A DNA stretch of 64,000 nt from a virus. Positions 14,135 to 59,030 of this stretch are shown here, in pieces. The first letter of the stretch is position 1, and every line of letters begins with the position of its first letter. The position numbers and the translations under genes were made by a program. The stretch is from positions 32,001-96,000 of IMG/VR virus record IMGVR_UViG_3300037454_000906, one strand, 5' to 3'. The notes under the pieces are model-generated. The model did no database searches. It saw only the letters and a program-made list of their open reading frames with translations, and was not told the DNA's origin.

Positions 14135-14516
14135 GGTACCTCCTGTGGTCATTGGTGCACACGCGGGCACCCCGTGTCCAACGATGGGGTCGTGGACATG
14201 GGTGCCCGTGTGTGCAGTGGTGGACCCCCGTGGTTCGCGGTGGCAACACGGGGGAAACGCTTGGTCGGCGGGGGGCGCGGGTACGGGGTAGCCGCCACGG
14301 TCATTCGGGGACCTGGGGGCCACCCCCTGTGAACGCAGGCCGTGCCCTGTCCGGCGACCTGTGCCTACGCTGTACCCCCGTGTCCCCCTCGATCTGGGAC
14401 ACTGGGTACACGGTGGGCATGGGGTCGCCGGGGGTCACTGGTCGCGGGAGGGGTGGTACACGGTGGGGATGGGCGGGCAGGGCGCGGCGGTGGAGCCTGG
14501 ACGGAGGTGGCGCCTG

Positions 14517-14803
14517 GGTTGTTAGCTGTTAATGAAAATGTTAATAAAATTTAACTAAACATACTTAAATATGCTAATGGAAATAATGTATATTTAGTTA
14601 TGCCTAGTTTGATATGCCGACCGTGTTAAGGCTCTTCAGTAATGAAGTAGGACTAGGCAAGTCAGCCGTGTTGCTTGATGCATATTAGGTATATCGCGTA
14701 GATACGGTTGATTAAGTGCCGTTACGGCCTACCCAGTGATGGGCAAGGTAGGAAATCACATAAGTCTATCTCTTGGTAGATTTAGGTAGGTTTCAGCTAA
14801 CGG
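14517..14803 (+). mobile_element. IS607-type mini-element copy 1 (no ORF; AT-rich left end plus omegaRNA-like scaffold)
   Basis: Near-identical to 39106..39393 and 56028..56313 (both inverted). Begins GGTTGTTAGC and ends TTTCAGCTAACGG. Shares CGACCGTGTTAAG, TGCCGTT(A/G)CG, TAGGAAATCAC and the end motif with the last ~190 nt of the tnpB element. Confidence 0.85.
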
Positions 14804-14820
14804 TGGAAAAATGAAAAATT

Positions 14821-38805: not shown

Positions 38806-39105
38806 CTAGTCCTCCTCGCTAACTCGCTTGTTACGTGGTTTCTTGCGCTTGTCAGGCACCTTCCGTGTGCGGAGCTTGCGCCCGTTCTCGGTCTCGGATA
38901 TGCGGATGGCGCGCTGCCCCTTGCTTTCTTTCCCGTCAACCGAAATTGAAATTGTGATTGTCATGTTCTTCATCGCTGACTCCTTGTTTCCGAACGCACC
39001 CACGATGTGCCGCCGGGGTCCACCGCCCGCGCATCCAGCGGCACACGGTGGCACCGGGGCGAAATTGAAAGAAAAAGTAAACTTTCGTTTACCCTTTCTT
39101 CCCTA

Positions 39106-39393
39106 CCGTTAACTGAAACCTACCTAAATCTACCACTAGGACAGACCTACGTGATTTCCTGCCTTGCCCATTGCTGAGTAGGCCGTAACGGCACTTAATC
39201 AACCGCATCTACGCGATATACCTAATATGCATCAAGCAACACGGCTGACTTGCCTAGTCCTACTCCATTACTGAAGAGCCTTAACACGGTCGGCATATCA
39301 AACTAGGCATTGTTAAATATACATTATTTCCATTAGCATATTTAAGTATATTTAGTTAAATGTTGTTAACATTTTCGTTAACTGCTAACAACC
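39106..39393 (-). mobile_element. IS607-type mini-element copy 2
   Basis: Inverted, slightly diverged copy of 14517..14803; flanks TG|GG...GG|T. Confidence 0.85.
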
Positions 39394-39644
39394 CACACAC
39401 CAAGCATGAATACCGCGAAGGCGCCACCGAGCATCGGATGTACCGAGTAGAGGTATCCGGTCACGACGAGCGCTCCGATGAATGCGAGGCACCCCATGGT
39501 CGCCCTACTTGCGCCTGCGGAACCTGCCGTAAAGGTCGGTGTTCCCGTTGGAGTGTACGTTCACGGGGCGCACAGAGGGCAGTCCCGCGCTCTTCGCGGC
39601 AAAGGAGGCGAATTTGAAAAATTTTGTGGAGATGAGTCTGAGCA

Positions 39645-49780: not shown

Positions 49781-50791
49781 GATGTAACTCCTTTTGATGA
49801 ACATGCCCACGATGCGACGCCAGGTCCCACCAAGGGCGGGACTGTGGTCACATGGTGGCCCCCAAGCAAAACACTGACCCGCAGGAGGCCGTAGGGCTAT
49901 CGCATACCAAATCCGGTGCCCCCATGTAGCATTCCGCCTCCATGCTTAACTCGTCCTCCATGAGGTCCGTGTCAAGTTCGCATCGTGCATCTAGTTCGGT
50001 AACCATGCGTGCCTCCTCGGGTTGAACGGGCCCACGCTGTGCCGCCGGACCCCACCGACCGCGGGACACCGGACGCACGGCGGGTGCAAGTTCCTGGGGA
50101 CCGAAAGGCCGTATAGGGAACATGGGGCACAATTGAGCACCATGGTAGCGTCCTCGGTTCCCCCGGTGTCCCCAGGGTCCCGCGGGGTGACCCCCGCGCC
50201 CACGGTGTCCCACCGGCGGGCGCGCCCGCCGGGACGCGAGGGGGACATGGCCGGGAAAAAATCAAAATCAAAACCTGGGGGTCACATTTTGGAAAATGGC
50301 GATCTCCGCTTTGCCCCGATTTCAAAAAATTTACCCGGTAGGGGGGTACGGGGGTTTCCGGCGGCCCTTTGTAAACATTTGTAAACATTTTCCGGGGGTA
50401 ACTGGCCCCAAAAAATCAAAAACTTTTTTAACCCGGTACCGGGTACCCTAAGTTTGAATGAATGATGTCTAATTAACGAAAAAAAATTTTTGGGGGGTGG
50501 GGGTCTGCATATTTTTATGAATAATATAAGCTGTATTATAGATACAGTGGGGGTTATCAACAGCTAACCTAAAATCTACCTAAATTTACTCAATTTTACC
50601 GAAATCGGCAAGTATTTTAGTGCATTTTAGGTTGAAAATCGACATAAAATTTTGTACATTGTTATAAACTTGATATATAACGGTTCGATGAATTAGTCGT
50701 GTTCTTCGTCGAGCTATAGTGGAAACCATTTCGATGGCTCGTTTGGAATTGAACACGACAATAAGTTCCTTACGAGCCATTTCTGTATTGT

Positions 50792-52528
50792 ATGAGCAAG
50801 CATTGTTGGACATTGAAGGATCGGTATGAGTCGCAGTTCTCCGCTGCGTTCTATCCTATTCTATTGTCCGACACCAAGCGTGCCGAAATTACCCATCGTG
50901 CGGGGGAAATCCGTTCCGTAAGGAACGACATATCGGAAGTGTTCTTCTCGGATATGCTCGGCTTCCAGGATATGAGCAAGTTCGAGGCCTTTAACTTTTT
51001 CAATCCGACATTCAATACACGCCTATCTGGCCACTACTTGAAGAAGGCTATCGAGGATGTCTGGAAGGCATACCAATTACGGTTCGATGCGATCCGCAGG
51101 AAGATTGAGTTCGTCAAGGTTGAAGAGCTGGTTCCATCCTTTTACAAGATAAACACCCATGGGCATAGGAAAGGCGACCTTAAATCTATTGAAGTTCATA
51201 CCAAGAAGACAGAACTTACCAAAGTGCTGACTTGGCTTGCTCGATACGGCAAGAATGAAACCGTCTATTGGCTTGAATCCGTTATTCCTACCGTAGTAGA
51301 ATCCAAGCAGAAGTTCTATCGAGCTATACTTGATAAGATACGCAAATTTGGGTTTGACCGCCTCATGCGGTTGGCGCGGTCAAGAAGAACATCTGTATTT
51401 GCCGAATACGAGAAGCGTGGCAAGATTACCTTTGAATCGCTTACATTCTCTGGCCGTAGTCGTATCAAGCGTCCTATCGTGGATGCTCGCAGGAACGAGA
51501 CTGGTAAGTTCGATTACTTCATCGAGATTTCCTGGGATTGGAATGACCAAGGCTACCGTGGTGACAGCAAGAACACGCTATGCATGCCGTTCAAGTATAA
51601 CAAGGCATACCACCGTTCGTTGAACCGCTACTGCAACGGAACCGATACATCCTATACGATGGTAGTCCGAGGAAAGGACATCCATGTAGTTCTCGCAAGG
51701 GACGGCTACCGCTATAAGAATACTGACGAGATTACCGAAGAAAATACCGTCGGAATAGATGTCAATTCCAAGCACAACATGTTCGCATTGAGTACCGGTG
51801 AGTTCATCCCGAACGACGATGCCTTGATTGCCGACCTTGAAACCGAGTTGCTCAAGATAGACCGGAAGCAGAAGAACTACAACGTCAAATTCAAGGAAGA
51901 CGAAGAGCATGAAGCGTTCAAGATATCCAAGAAGGACAAGGCTCGCATCGAAGCTATTACATTGAAGCTGAACGAGTCCAACAAGCGAGCTATCGTACTG
52001 CTTTGCCAAGCATTTGCCGCTAAAGGAATCAAGCACATCGCAATGGAGAACCTCGATGGTTTCCAAGGCAGAAGGCTCCATGCTGATGACTCAAAAGGAT
52101 TTAATCTAGGAAGGTTGCATCTAAGGACTGGACTATCCTCGTTGAAGGACGAGTTCATCCATATTGCACCGCATTACGGACTGTCGGTTTCACTTGTGCA
52201 ACCCGAATACACTTCCAAGATGTGCGGTGAGTGCGGTTGCATCGACGACCGGAACCGCCAGACACAAGAAGAATTTTGCTGTGTTGAATGCCATCATGCG
52301 GAAAACGCGGATATTCATTCAGCCAAGAATATTAAAGTCCGTCTTACCTCGACCGTGTTAAGAGGGAACTTGCTCGAAAGGGCAGGGGATAGCGGATATA
52401 GGTACTTCCAGCCAAAGAGCTTGTTCAGGTGGCAAGTAAGGAAGTGCCTAGAAAAATGCCGTTGCGATGGTCTTCTCAAACGGACCATAGGAAATCACGA
52501 AAACCTTACTGTGAGTAGGTTTGAGTAG
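50792..52528 (+). CDS. tnpB: TnpB RNA-guided RuvC endonuclease (large, 578 aa)
   Basis: RuvC-I VGIDVN, RuvC-II IAMENL, V.PEYTSK.C..C...C..C Zn finger, RuvC-III NADIHSAKNI; all catalytic residues present. Confidence 0.92.
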   Translation: MSKHCWTLKDRYESQFSAAFYPILLSDTKRAEITHRAGEIRSVRNDISEVFFSDMLGFQDMSKFEAFNFFNPTFNTRLSGHYLKKAIEDVWKAYQLRFDAIRRKIEFVKVEELVPSFYKINTHGHRKGDLKSIEVHTKKTELTKVLTWLARYGKNETVYWLESVIPTVVESKQKFYRAILDKIRKFGFDRLMRLARSRRTSVFAEYEKRGKITFESLTFSGRSRIKRPIVDARRNETGKFDYFIEISWDWNDQGYRGDSKNTLCMPFKYNKAYHRSLNRYCNGTDTSYTMVVRGKDIHVVLARDGYRYKNTDEITEENTVGIDVNSKHNMFALSTGEFIPNDDALIADLETELLKIDRKQKNYNVKFKEDEEHEAFKISKKDKARIEAITLKLNESNKRAIVLLCQAFAAKGIKHIAMENLDGFQGRRLHADDSKGFNLGRLHLRTGLSSLKDEFIHIAPHYGLSVSLVQPEYTSKMCGECGCIDDRNRQTQEEFCCVECHHAENADIHSAKNIKVRLTSTVLRGNLLERAGDSGYRYFQPKSLFRWQVRKCLEKCRCDGLLKRTIGNHENLTVSRFE

Positions 52529-52542
52529 ATTTCAGTCAACGG
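52350..52542 (+). ncRNA. Predicted omegaRNA (reRNA) scaffold of the tnpB element
   Basis: Overlaps the tnpB 3' end and right end, as is typical for TnpB systems; homologous blocks are conserved in the three mini-elements. Confidence 0.6.
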
Positions 52543-52668
52543 TAGCATGCATGTCGTCGGGCACGGTAATCATGTCCCGGAGGAACTTGCACAGTTCAGG
52601 GAAAGTTGTCGGCATGCGCTTGACTAAGTCGGATAACACCGGATTGTATATTTTATCCATATGACGCC

Positions 52669-55438: not shown

Positions 55439-55467
55439 AATGTAGCAAAAAGGGCCCGGTTTGACAA
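55439..55467 (-). promoter_or_regulatory. Sigma70-type promoter with extended -10
   Basis: TTGTCA-N17-TACATT with TG immediately upstream (TGC-TACATT). Confidence 0.7.
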
Positions 55468-55475
55468 CCGGACCC
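55447..55475 (-). terminator. Intrinsic terminator at the trailer end of the CRISPR array
   Basis: GGGTCCGGTT-GTCA-AACCGGGCCC-TTTTT; overlaps the -35 box of the next promoter. Confidence 0.7.
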
Positions 55476-55514
55476 ATGTGTCAAGATTTGTTGACATGCT
55501 ACGACTAACATTCT

Positions 55515-55991: not shown

Positions 55992-56027
55992 ACATTTTGC
56001 ATAAGTCCCCGTTGGCCAAATAGTTAA

Positions 56028-56313
56028 CCGTTAACTGAAACCTACCTAAATCTACCAAGAGATAGACTTATGTGATTTCCTACCTTGCCCATCACTGGGT
56101 AGGCCGTAACGGCACTTAATCAACCGTATCTACGCGATATACCTAATATGCATCAAGCAACACGGCTGACTTGCCTAGTCCTACTCCATTACTGAAGAGC
56201 CTTAACACGGTCGGCATATCAAACTAGGCATTATTAAATATACATTATTTCCATTGCATATTTAAGTATGTTTAGTTAAATTTTATTAACATTTTCATTA
56301 ACAGCTAACAACC
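56028..56313 (-). mobile_element. IS607-type mini-element copy 3, in the CRISPR leader
   Basis: Near-identical to copy 1; lies 32 bp after the cas stop and 36 bp before the first repeat, co-oriented with both. Confidence 0.88.
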
Positions 56314-56345
56314 CACATAAAATAATAAAAAACTGGCATTCAAGA

Positions 56346-59030
56346 TTACCTGAACATGAATTTCTGGTTCTTCACACAGCATGCGCTATTCTCGTCGGCA
56401 TACTGGTACATGCCGTACCAGGGAGACTCCGGTACGAATGTGATGAACGTGCGTCCACTGCGGTAGTTCCACCCGTTCATGCGGCATCCTTCGATTCCTG
56501 CAGTCCGTACCTTGGCCTTTGTGACCGTCTTGGGCAAGCCCACCATCGTGTAGTGGTCGGTGAATGACGTGCCCCTCTTGTCAACTGTTCCGAAGAGGAT
56601 CTTTCGCTTGGCGCACATCTTCTCCATAGCCTTGCCCTCTATGGATATGTGGAGAGACTTGATCAACCTGCCGTCGGCCCTGGCAATCGCTCTTAGCTCG
56701 ATGAATTCCCTGGTGGCGGAGCATTTCATCTTCACCGCACCGTTCCTTACGTAAACCTTGTCACATACCCAGAGGTCACTGCAGCGGTCGGCAGCGTTCT
56801 TTATGGTCTTTGCGGTATGGCCCTTGGGGCACGGGAACGTCACGTCAGCGGAATACCCATCTGGGGAAAACGTGATGTCCGGGATGAAGTCCGCGCCTTC
56901 AAACCATCCCTTGGTGATAACTCTAAAGAGACTCTTCACCTTGCGGTCCTTCTCTCCGTTGAAATTGAGGTCATTTTCCATCTTGATGACCTTCAGGCGC
57001 TTCTTGCCGAATTCCGTATCAAGGAAACAGATAGAACGGATGCGTGCCATGTTGCTGTCGATGCGGTTGTCTATGGCATGGCGCTCGTTCAGGAGTGCCG
57101 CGGCTTCCGCCGTTTCCGAGAACTTGCCGGTATGTTTGAGGGACCATTCGGACTGTTTGGCGTAGTATCTCTCGTAGCCGACAATCTGTTCCTTGATCAG
57201 CCTGCGCTGGATGAAGGTGTAATCCACGATTTCGCGCTTCCTGGTGCCGCTATGGTACTTGCTGCGGAGATAAGCGAAGAAGCCGACGAGAGGATCCACG
57301 GGGGTCTTCCACCCGTTCTCCCTGATACCAACGAGTCCATAACGGATGCCAAGTGTCAGCATGAATGCATAGCGGTGAACACTGTCCTTCTTCGGTCGTT
57401 CGTGGACGGCGCGGTACATGACTTCGAGTTCGCCAATGACCGCGTCGATTTCCCTGCGGCACAAGGTGGTGCGGGCAAGTTCCTTCTCGATTATCCCGTT
57501 ATCATGGAACTTCTCGTAATATTCGGCCAGCTCGCCTACCCAGTCGACAACGTCGCCCATGAGGTTTACTGGAATCGACGTGTTGTAAAAGAAAACCGCG
57601 GTATTGAGGTCGATGCCAACCACCGATTCCTTGTCCATCTTGGTCTCGTCGCTAATCTTGATTTCGGTGGATTCCACGCTTCCCGCAACCGATCCCGTGA
57701 ATTCGGCATGTCTAGGGCACTTGCGGAACCCGGTGGGGGAAATAATGTCTTCGGGCATGAAGGCGGACTTGGGCAGGGACACCGTGACCGTGGGCGTTTC
57801 CTTGAGTGCCTTCTCGATGCCGGCGAAATAGGGGAACTTGCCGACCCTGGACTGGGAACGGGTCTTCATGAGGAGCGTAGCGGAAGCACATTCGTCGCCG
57901 GTCACCGGAAGCTGCGGGATAACCAGTTCGGAATTGTAGTATCCGTCCTTGTGCACGTCGAGGTTCACGATGCAGTGGTCCATGGGGACTGCTGTGTTGT
58001 CGGAGAGCTTGACACACCCCATGTTTTCGATGAACACCCGCATCGCCGCACGGTAGGCCTTGTTGAACTTTTCGATGTCCGTTGGCTTTTCAATCTTTAC
58101 CTTCTTGCCACATACCTTGGCGTAGGGGAACGCATCCTCCCCATTCTTGTTCTTCTTGTCCCATATGGCCAGGGACGGCATTCGCTTGTTTAGGTACGAA
58201 TGGGTGTCGGGCCCGACCTGCTCCAGTTGGGCGGCGAGCATCTGAACATTTTCCGGCATGTGTTTCCAGTTGTCGAATTTCCGCTCAGGATCGTCGCCGT
58301 TCCACCCGAGGGACAGCTTGATGGAATTGCGGAACAGCTTGTCGTCGTAACCTTCCCCCACGTTACGGAGCATCTTCGCGCCGACAAAGGCGCGTAGCTT
58401 CCCGTTGACCATCGTGTTCACGATTGCGCCGGATACGAATGCGGAAGCGCAGAACTGCATTTCGTCGGGGTCGATGCCGGCGAGGGCCGCATAGGACTTC
58501 CTCAGCACGGATTCGACATCGCTGGTAGTGACGCCGAAAAGTTTCCGGTAATAACCGCTGGGGCTGAACAGGGAATACGAGAGGTATGCCCCCTGGCGCA
58601 GGTGGGTGACCGGGATCTCGATATCCCTGCCACGGATCTTGGCCACATGGCATTCCTTTCCCCTGGTCTTTCCGATAATGCGCCCATCGGACATTACGAC
58701 ATCGAAGTTGTTCTTGTATTCGTTGAGTGCCTGGTTACGGAGGTCATACAGGTCCCAGATGTAGAACTTTTCGTACCGCCCGTCCTTGAGCCTGATGTCG
58801 ATCGTATCAAAAAAGTGCTTGCCGATTGTTTCCACCGCAAACTTTGCAGCGGATACAGCCGCCTTCGATAGGTTGCTTATCCTCGTGGCATCGGTTTCAT
58901 TCATTGCGGCAATTTCGCACTTGTAGCCCCGAGTCTTCTTGTTTGCTTCGGGCGCGAAGGTGGAATAGGTGATTCCCCTATTCACACGGACCGTCGGTTC
59001 TATTTTCGGTTTACTGCGTTTCATTTTCAC
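56346..59030 (-). CDS. cas12: Type V CRISPR effector, Cas12 family, divergent Cas-lambda-like (894 aa)
   Basis: RuvC-I VVGIDLN, RuvC-II IKMENDL, GTSFTDH, RuvC-III YADENSA; no Zn finger; adjacent to the array. Segments GYYRKLFG, MGCVK, YYAKQSE...FSET, IKSLH recall Cas-lambda (from memory; needs alignment). Confidence 0.85.
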   Translation of the reverse strand: MKMKRSKPKIEPTVRVNRGITYSTFAPEANKKTRGYKCEIAAMNETDATRISNLSKAAVSAAKFAVETIGKHFFDTIDIRLKDGRYEKFYIWDLYDLRNQALNEYKNNFDVVMSDGRIIGKTRGKECHVAKIRGRDIEIPVTHLRQGAYLSYSLFSPSGYYRKLFGVTTSDVESVLRKSYAALAGIDPDEMQFCASAFVSGAIVNTMVNGKLRAFVGAKMLRNVGEGYDDKLFRNSIKLSLGWNGDDPERKFDNWKHMPENVQMLAAQLEQVGPDTHSYLNKRMPSLAIWDKKNKNGEDAFPYAKVCGKKVKIEKPTDIEKFNKAYRAAMRVFIENMGCVKLSDNTAVPMDHCIVNLDVHKDGYYNSELVIPQLPVTGDECASATLLMKTRSQSRVGKFPYFAGIEKALKETPTVTVSLPKSAFMPEDIISPTGFRKCPRHAEFTGSVAGSVESTEIKISDETKMDKESVVGIDLNTAVFFYNTSIPVNLMGDVVDWVGELAEYYEKFHDNGIIEKELARTTLCRREIDAVIGELEVMYRAVHERPKKDSVHRYAFMLTLGIRYGLVGIRENGWKTPVDPLVGFFAYLRSKYHSGTRKREIVDYTFIQRRLIKEQIVGYERYYAKQSEWSLKHTGKFSETAEAAALLNERHAIDNRIDSNMARIRSICFLDTEFGKKRLKVIKMENDLNFNGEKDRKVKSLFRVITKGWFEGADFIPDITFSPDGYSADVTFPCPKGHTAKTIKNAADRCSDLWVCDKVYVRNGAVKMKCSATREFIELRAIARADGRLIKSLHISIEGKAMEKMCAKRKILFGTVDKRGTSFTDHYTMVGLPKTVTKAKVRTAGIEGCRMNGWNYRSGRTFITFVPESPWYGMYQYADENSACCVKNQKFMFR

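Follow-up and report, generated by a model that had tools for sequence, protein, structure and literature searches.

A protein-less omegaRNA-type element inserted in the CRISPR leader of a rumen jumbo phage

Introduction

PATEs are protein-less, non-autonomous elements of the IS200/IS605 family that frequently encode an omegaRNA and depend on a TnpB supplied in trans (Meers et al., 10.1101/2023.03.14.532601). In the tnpB-only IS elements of the IS1341 group, the omegaRNA overlaps the 3' end of tnpB (PMC10278001). Closer to CRISPR systems, the account of Jin et al. (2025) given in PMC13565253 describes TranC intermediates in which one protein uses both kinds of RNA and the omegaRNA is split into a tracrRNA and a crRNA. 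A literature search on insertion sequences in CRISPR leaders yielded, by title and abstract, no report of an omegaRNA element in a leader.

Here we analyse such a locus in a 64,000-nt stretch of phage DNA (the window), which corresponds to positions 32001-96000 of a whole 253-kb genome (G000), an IMG/VR virus record that is 99% complete according to CheckV. A first-pass annotation, made from the letters alone, had described a mini-element lying between a cas gene and the first repeat of a CRISPR array, and had left three options for it: a supplier of the array promoter, a tracr- or scoutRNA-like RNA, or a recent neutral insertion. We find that the element has truly been inserted, that it is a non-autonomous transposon of a known kind and not a built-in CRISPR part, and that its functional link to the array is limited to probable read-through transcription.

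Results

Setting of the locus and layout from cas gene to array

The host genome is that of a rumen jumbo phage, and the region occurs in sequencing runs labelled as bovine, sheep or unspecified gut metagenomes, together with one small-share soil run. DNA run X1 is probably the source sample of the window, and its contigs bridge both junctions of the leader copy at phage depth (12-14.5). No contig of this run carries an excised (empty) allele, which does not show that such an allele is absent. Eight genes of the 253-kb phage encode a Cas12f/TnpB TNB domain, which is an unusually large number of RNA-guided nuclease genes in a single phage; one Y1 TnpA and one serine recombinase are also present.

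The locus lies entirely on the minus strand and comprises, in order, the 894-aa ORF, a 35-nt leader piece, the element, approximately 35 nt of leader, eight repeats and a terminator-like hairpin (Table 1). This order and the co-orientation are as the first-pass annotation had them, whereas its ends for the element, 56028-56313, are 1-3 nt off when compared with the 284 bp delimited by the empty sites of relatives. A protein-coding ORF could not be accommodated in this length, given the AT-rich 5' part, and no ORF of 80 aa or more was found inside 56027-56310, in agreement with its description as protein-less. The leader does lie on the cas side of the array, as had been proposed, since extra cas-proximal spacers in two relatives (L002 and L101) fix the polarity. 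The remaining leader (55992..56026) matches the empty-leader allele next to GGGT, and no terminator-like site was detected in this interval between the element and repeat 1. A search of the whole window against Rfam at the gathering threshold returned zero matches.

A GC hairpin followed by a T-run is conserved directly 3' of the array, in the window (55452-55477) and in two relatives (L001:14103-14150; L002:5893-5935). Because this conserved hairpin lies there, the 400-aa ORF listed from 55477 probably starts further in; in relatives it is called at 370-381 aa.

Table 1. Coordinates of the leader locus and of related elements, in window positions.
Feature	Position	Strand	Basis or remarks
894-aa Cas-lambda (Cas12l)-like type V effector	59030->56346	-	RuvC triad, family profile, fold
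Upstream native leader piece, ending in GGGT (56314->56311)	56311..56345	-	continuous with downstream leader in empty sites of L002, L112, L113, L101 and L001
Mini-element, 284 bp	56310->56027	-	bounds from empty sites of relatives, 2-nt TT ambiguity
AT-rich 5' part of mini-element: left end and -10-like box TGTATATT	56218..56310	-	conserved among copies
OmegaRNA-type scaffold of mini-element, right end ...TTTCAGTTAACGGT	56027..56217	-	aligned with tnpB 3' ends
Remaining leader; also the flank that would be read as omegaRNA guide	55992..56026	-	identical in L112 and L113 empty sites
CRISPR array, 8 repeats of 36 nt	55991->55513	-	repeat farthest from cas degenerate
Terminator-like hairpin and T-run closing the cas-array unit	55475->55452	-	same hairpin after L001 and L002 arrays
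Second mini-element copy, 98% identical	14520..14804	+	intergenic, antisense to neighbouring genes
Third mini-element copy, 94% identical	39105..39390	-	intergenic
tnpB-only element, 1,989 bp	50555-52543	+	578-aa TnpB ORF 50792-52528, scaffold 52342-52543, GGGT 50551-50554

The neighbouring gene encodes a type V effector

The 894-aa protein alone gave zero matches in Pfam, NCBIfam, PADLOC and the sequences of the PDB. An exhaustive search among 1.8 billion proteins yielded a family of 12 representatives, in the alignment of which (A3) D474, E685 and D879 are invariant, in the contexts GID-N, ME-DLN and NAD-NAA, respectively. PF07282 is matched by nine of the 12 members, and the family profile matches Cas12f/TnpB chains in the PDB at 6.5e-8. 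Foldseek searches with an AlphaFold model (pLDDT 75.7) gave CasLambda2 (9izm, E 2e-12) and CasLambda as best matches, in the range 2e-12 to 8e-11, the nearest solved fold being that of Cas-lambda with crRNA. With its RuvC D-E-D triad, its Cas12 fold and its position adjoining the array, this neighbour is a real type V (Cas12) effector. A zinc ribbon of the form CxxC...CxxC is kept in distant members of the family; its cysteines have been lost in the lineage of the window (TSFTDHYT; 56346-56480, at the C-terminus), in which the RuvC-III aspartate is kept despite this loss.

The mini-element belongs to a mobile family with a fixed target motif

BLAST analysis of 55992-56345 against the window revealed two more copies, at 14515-14804 (98%) and 39105-39397 (94%), as well as short stretches of similarity at either end of the tnpB locus, a tnpB-only element that lies 4 kb from the leader copy. 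The 578-aa TnpB encoded there matches PF07282 at 1.2e-11, NF040570 at 1.5e-19 and Cas12f/TnpB entries in the PDB, and homology of the element to loci in other phages spans exactly 50551-52543. An nhmmer profile of the scaffold detected exactly four copies in the 253-kb genome, with E-values of 1e-50 to 1e-56, namely the three mini-elements, at 94-100% identity, and the tnpB-linked copy.

Scanning IMG/VR with a two-block pattern identified 21 further loci on phage contigs, 10 of the mini type, eight of which have the full left end, and 11 of the tnpB type, which lie at the 3' end of tnpB genes 75-92% identical to that of the window. In every copy of either type in which the left end is present, GGGT directly precedes the element; the right end reads AACGGT and the flanks are unrelated. 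Multiple copies with unrelated flanks, together with precise empty sites, establish that the element is mobile. The cognate tnpB is present in five of the eight records that hold mini-elements, the other three being fragments of 8-36% completeness. The gene for the Cas-lambda-like effector is absent from five records with mini-elements, including a 91%-complete one that has three.

A mini-type scaffold (L017:5572-5926) without the usual left part and -10-like box lies approximately 78 nt downstream of a co-oriented tRNA-Ala gene, from which it may be transcribed. Two tnpB elements (L012 and L015), the TnpB proteins of which are 83% and 81% identical to that of the window, occupy the same site with near-identical flanks, which could reflect either an old orthologous insertion or copying into one site.

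The insertion follows a fixed motif without target duplication and the empty site is restored exactly, with the 2-nt TT ambiguity, a trait of IS200/IS605 elements. A hairpin at the right end, 10 nt from the tip, has a z-score of -2.6 in the mini-element and -1.2 in the tnpB element; at the left end no significant hairpin was found, the single-stranded DNA fold scoring z +1.1 (mini-element) and -0.7 (tnpB element) against shuffles. Both junctions read GGT, which would fit either IS200/IS605 or the core of a serine recombinase (IS607). The genome has one Y1_Tnp gene (Y1 TnpA; genome positions 186545-186922) and one serine recombinase (resolvase; 148803-149225), both located elsewhere, and no loci with mini-element ends were found in the 253 kb beyond the four copies. 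On this sequence evidence, IS200/IS605 and IS607 chemistry are both possible.

The right part of the element is an omegaRNA-type scaffold

Four sequence blocks had been reported to be shared between the mini-element and the tnpB element. We find them in the same order and at similar spacing, over 186 nt in the mini-element and 194 nt at the 3' end of tnpB (52350-52543). In an alignment (A4) of 20 distinct copies, 11 mini-type and nine tnpB-type, CGACCGTGTTAAG, GCCGTT, AGGAAATCAC and the right-end tip are invariant. RNAalifold predicts 37 pairs in five helices from this alignment, one of which is long-range and pairs GCCGTTAC with the terminal GTTAACGGT. Changes on both sides of a pair, that is, compensatory changes, occur in 15 of the 37 pairs; 98.9% of cells are paired, compared with 26-46% when the partners are slid, and zero shuffles reach the covariation score. 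Most of the compensatory changes separate the mini from the tnpB type and therefore represent few independent events, while some, such as those in the first hairpin, are also found among mini-type copies. The RNA fold of the scaffold in the leader copy (56027..56217) has a z-score of -2.8. By its invariant blocks, common fold and compensatory changes, the 3' ~190 nt of the mini-element is thus an omegaRNA-type scaffold homologous to that of the 578-aa tnpB element, as the first reading of the locus had supposed.

The -10-like box that had been noted in the AT-rich part is located at 56245->56238. Its TATATTT core is present in 12 of 13 aligned mini-type copies (L017 lacks it) and TG in nine. 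A sigma-70 scan returned zero minus-strand promoters inside the element, the box having failed for lack of a -35 hexamer.

Empty leaders in relatives

In eight related contigs (L001, L002, L101 and L112-L116), the effectors of which are 89-97% identical to that of the window, the leader is an uninterrupted stretch of approximately 70 nt. The empty leader predicted by the first-pass annotation, TATGTGGGTTAACTATTTGG, occurs verbatim in three of them (L002, L112 and L113), and the five further relatives are also empty. The leaders of L112 and L113 are identical to the two flanks of the window joined exactly, which gives an insert of 284 bp and implies that the insertion is recent and dispensable. 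From these comparisons we judge the insertion to be young; of the three options originally offered, the precise empty sites in eight relatives favour that of a recent insertion. Searching IMG/VR with a leader pattern returned 77 unrelated matches and zero relatives, and the one metagenome scan returned a single relative, L101.

GGGT is absent in the group of relatives at 89% identity, and in each of L002, L101 and L001 either GGGT or the flank departs from that of the window. We considered whether empty leaders might be mutants that have escaped TnpB, and rejected this because L112 and L113 keep the perfect motif and flank.

Comparison of the arrays shows that spacers 1-2 of the window equal spacers 4-5 of L002 and that spacers 2-5 equal spacers 3-6 of L101, with three and two extra spacers, respectively, on the cas side of these relatives. 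The arrays are mosaic: only two spacers are common to L002 (4986-5870) and the window, while L101 has the entire trailer half in common with it. To judge from the sequences, this mosaicism points to recombination between arrays. Some of the spacers are only 18-22 nt long.

Contigs from RNA libraries

In three metatranscriptome studies, contigs from RNA libraries span 56027 to ~56217, and the AT-rich 5' part is missing from all of them. These data are assembled contigs in which strand, true ends and levels are not readable and DNA carry-over is possible. Two RNA contigs stop at 56216/56217, that is, 21 nt downstream of the -10-like box, where DNA contigs of run X1 continue through. One contig of run X8 extends beyond the right end by 63 nt, into the sequence flanking the copy at 39 kb, as would be expected of an omegaRNA precursor that bears its guide. 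The X8 RNA library also contains the array at 100% identity and a depth of 2-3; the bridge from repeat 1 to the leader and cas contigs are absent from it, which is uninformative either way as contigs break at repeats.

A single transcript running from omegaRNA through leader into array had been suggested from the layout and is expected in principle, since transcription of an omegaRNA has to cross the right end. A contig from the RNA library of run X19 (record 8; 268 nt) bears on this point. Its depth is 55.6, compared with 5.3 for a cas contig of the same run. It starts with 118 nt, the first 30 letters of which resemble a tnpB-type right end; next come the final 18 nt of the right end with the leader and repeat 1, and a later repeat-spacer unit follows. 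For such a contig to be assembled, reads must have spanned the junctions, so that a relative carries a different member of the family at the same leader position and this junction occurs in an RNA library. The contig weakly supports read-through transcription from the leader element into the array.

Discussion

We consider it likely that the leader copy is a recently transposed, PATE-type omegaRNA-only transposon for which TnpB acts in trans, and that any effect on the array is a by-product. The element carries a left end, the -10-like box and a ~190 nt omegaRNA scaffold that ends at the right end. In the mechanism that we envisage, it would insert scarlessly 3' of GGGT, a motif that the leader happens to contain. 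RNA would start inside the element, from its putative promoter, and cross the right end, so that the adjacent leader would become the guide. The 578-aa TnpB would load this RNA in trans, and the complex would be predicted to cut the empty allele (GGGT plus leader) in the genomes of sibling or co-infecting phages, which would favour keeping or copying the element by recombination, in the manner of homing. The same transcript probably enters the array, given that repeat 1 lies only ~35 nt downstream with no terminator between, and may add to the pre-crRNA. Any such effect on transcription of the array would follow from the landing position and not from CRISPR design.

One alternative, which we regard as unlikely, is that the insertion is mildly harmful, in that the 70-nt leader is interrupted 35 nt from repeat 1, to the detriment of spacer uptake or of the native promoter, and that it persists because it is recent or is homed by TnpB. 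The window has no unique cas-proximal spacers where L002 and L101 have three and two, its first spacer being the fourth of L002, and the occupied-leader variant of run X19 also starts with an old shared spacer. However, the sample is very small, and in mosaic arrays, such as that of L002 with its two shared spacers, recombination and deletion blur the order of spacers. With so few data and such arrays, we did not conclude from the spacer counts that the insertion stops spacer uptake.

A second alternative is co-option, whereby the promoter of the element drives a transcript of omegaRNA, leader and pre-crRNA that the Cas-lambda-like protein processes, and elements settle in the leader again and again because the phage or the element benefits. 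The element is co-oriented and lies ~35 nt from repeat 1, and no terminator-like site separates the two; this is consistent with co-option, as are the conservation of the TATATTT box and the X19 contig, in which the right end of a different, tnpB-type member is joined to repeat 1 and a spacer. On the other hand, eight relatives have empty leaders, two of these (L002 and L101) carry three and two cas-proximal spacers that the window lacks while its first spacer is shared, most copies of the family are unrelated to CRISPR, the other two window copies are oriented differently with respect to their neighbours, and the contig in question is one record of one run. We therefore hold co-option to be distinctly unlikely.

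Two family members at the same leader site are nevertheless unexpected for purely random insertion. This leaves room for a more elaborate scheme, rather improbable in our estimation, in which the leader is a preferred landing site for omegaRNA elements (at least two members, at the same GGGT, in different lineages), the 3' extension of the omegaRNA in a chimeric transcript is at the same time pre-crRNA and feeds both TnpB and Cas12, and the TnpB guide is aimed at the CRISPR leader of rival siblings.

That the element RNA is a tracrRNA- or scoutRNA-like partner, pairing with the repeat or acting as a second guide component of the Cas-lambda-like effector, is suggested only by its position beside the array and by the TnpB/Cas12 ancestry common to both proteins, and this option of the first-pass annotation can be set aside as extremely improbable, since no anti-repeat that exceeds shuffles was detected, either in the element or around the array (best repeat duplex -23.0 kcal/mol, shuffles -23.7 +/- 2.8), the eight close relatives run the same array with no element, the nearest solved structures are of CasLambda with crRNA, and the invariant blocks of the scaffold are those of the 3' region of the 578-aa TnpB gene itself.

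The locus documents a new, covariation-supported omegaRNA family for an unusually long (578-aa) TnpB of rumen jumbo phages, and a stripped-down derivative, consisting of box and omegaRNA, that spreads without its nuclease gene. The 4-nt target motif GGGT and the ~190-nt scaffold may serve genome editing. The naturally occurring occupied alleles and exactly matching empty ones amount to a natural experiment on omegaRNA read-out versus CRISPR array, and the same pair of alleles bears on TnpB homing between co-infecting phages. Of all its features, the recurrent use of the leader site is the one that merits further work.

Comparison with known systems

The 894-aa effector resembles Cas-lambda (Cas12l) of huge phages in its best structural matches, CasLambda2 and CasLambda, and in its setting, a compact phage locus of effector and array without adaptation genes. 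It differs from Cas-lambda in its size (894 aa here, ~740 there), in the ~11% identity over the structural alignment and in the loss of the zinc-ribbon cysteines in the lineage of the window. Like tracrRNAs, scoutRNAs and the RNAs of TranC, the element provides an omegaRNA-derived structured RNA beside the array of a TnpB-descended effector; unlike them, this RNA has no anti-repeat, probably belongs to the 578-aa TnpB, is mobile and is absent from close relatives. Whereas TranC, in the account cited above, unites both RNA kinds in one protein, the 578-aa TnpB and the 894-aa effector are separate proteins and the RNA is assigned to TnpB.

The 1,989-bp element of the window has the plan of the IS1341 group, and the mini-element shares with it the target motif, the right end and the scaffold fold. 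Relative to the tnpB element, ~1.8 kb, comprising the left-end leader and tnpB, is replaced in the mini-element by ~95 nt of AT-rich sequence, and the middle of the scaffold has diverged, with pairing kept by compensatory changes. As in PATEs, there is no ORF, the left and right ends are kept, an omegaRNA-type scaffold abuts the right end, insertion by a short fixed motif is scarless, a genome carries several copies and, at another of its loci, the gene for a related TnpB. Unlike PATEs, the mini-element shows no detected left-end hairpin, has its own conserved -10-like box and resides in jumbo phage genomes rather than in a bacterial chromosome, with one copy sitting in a CRISPR leader.
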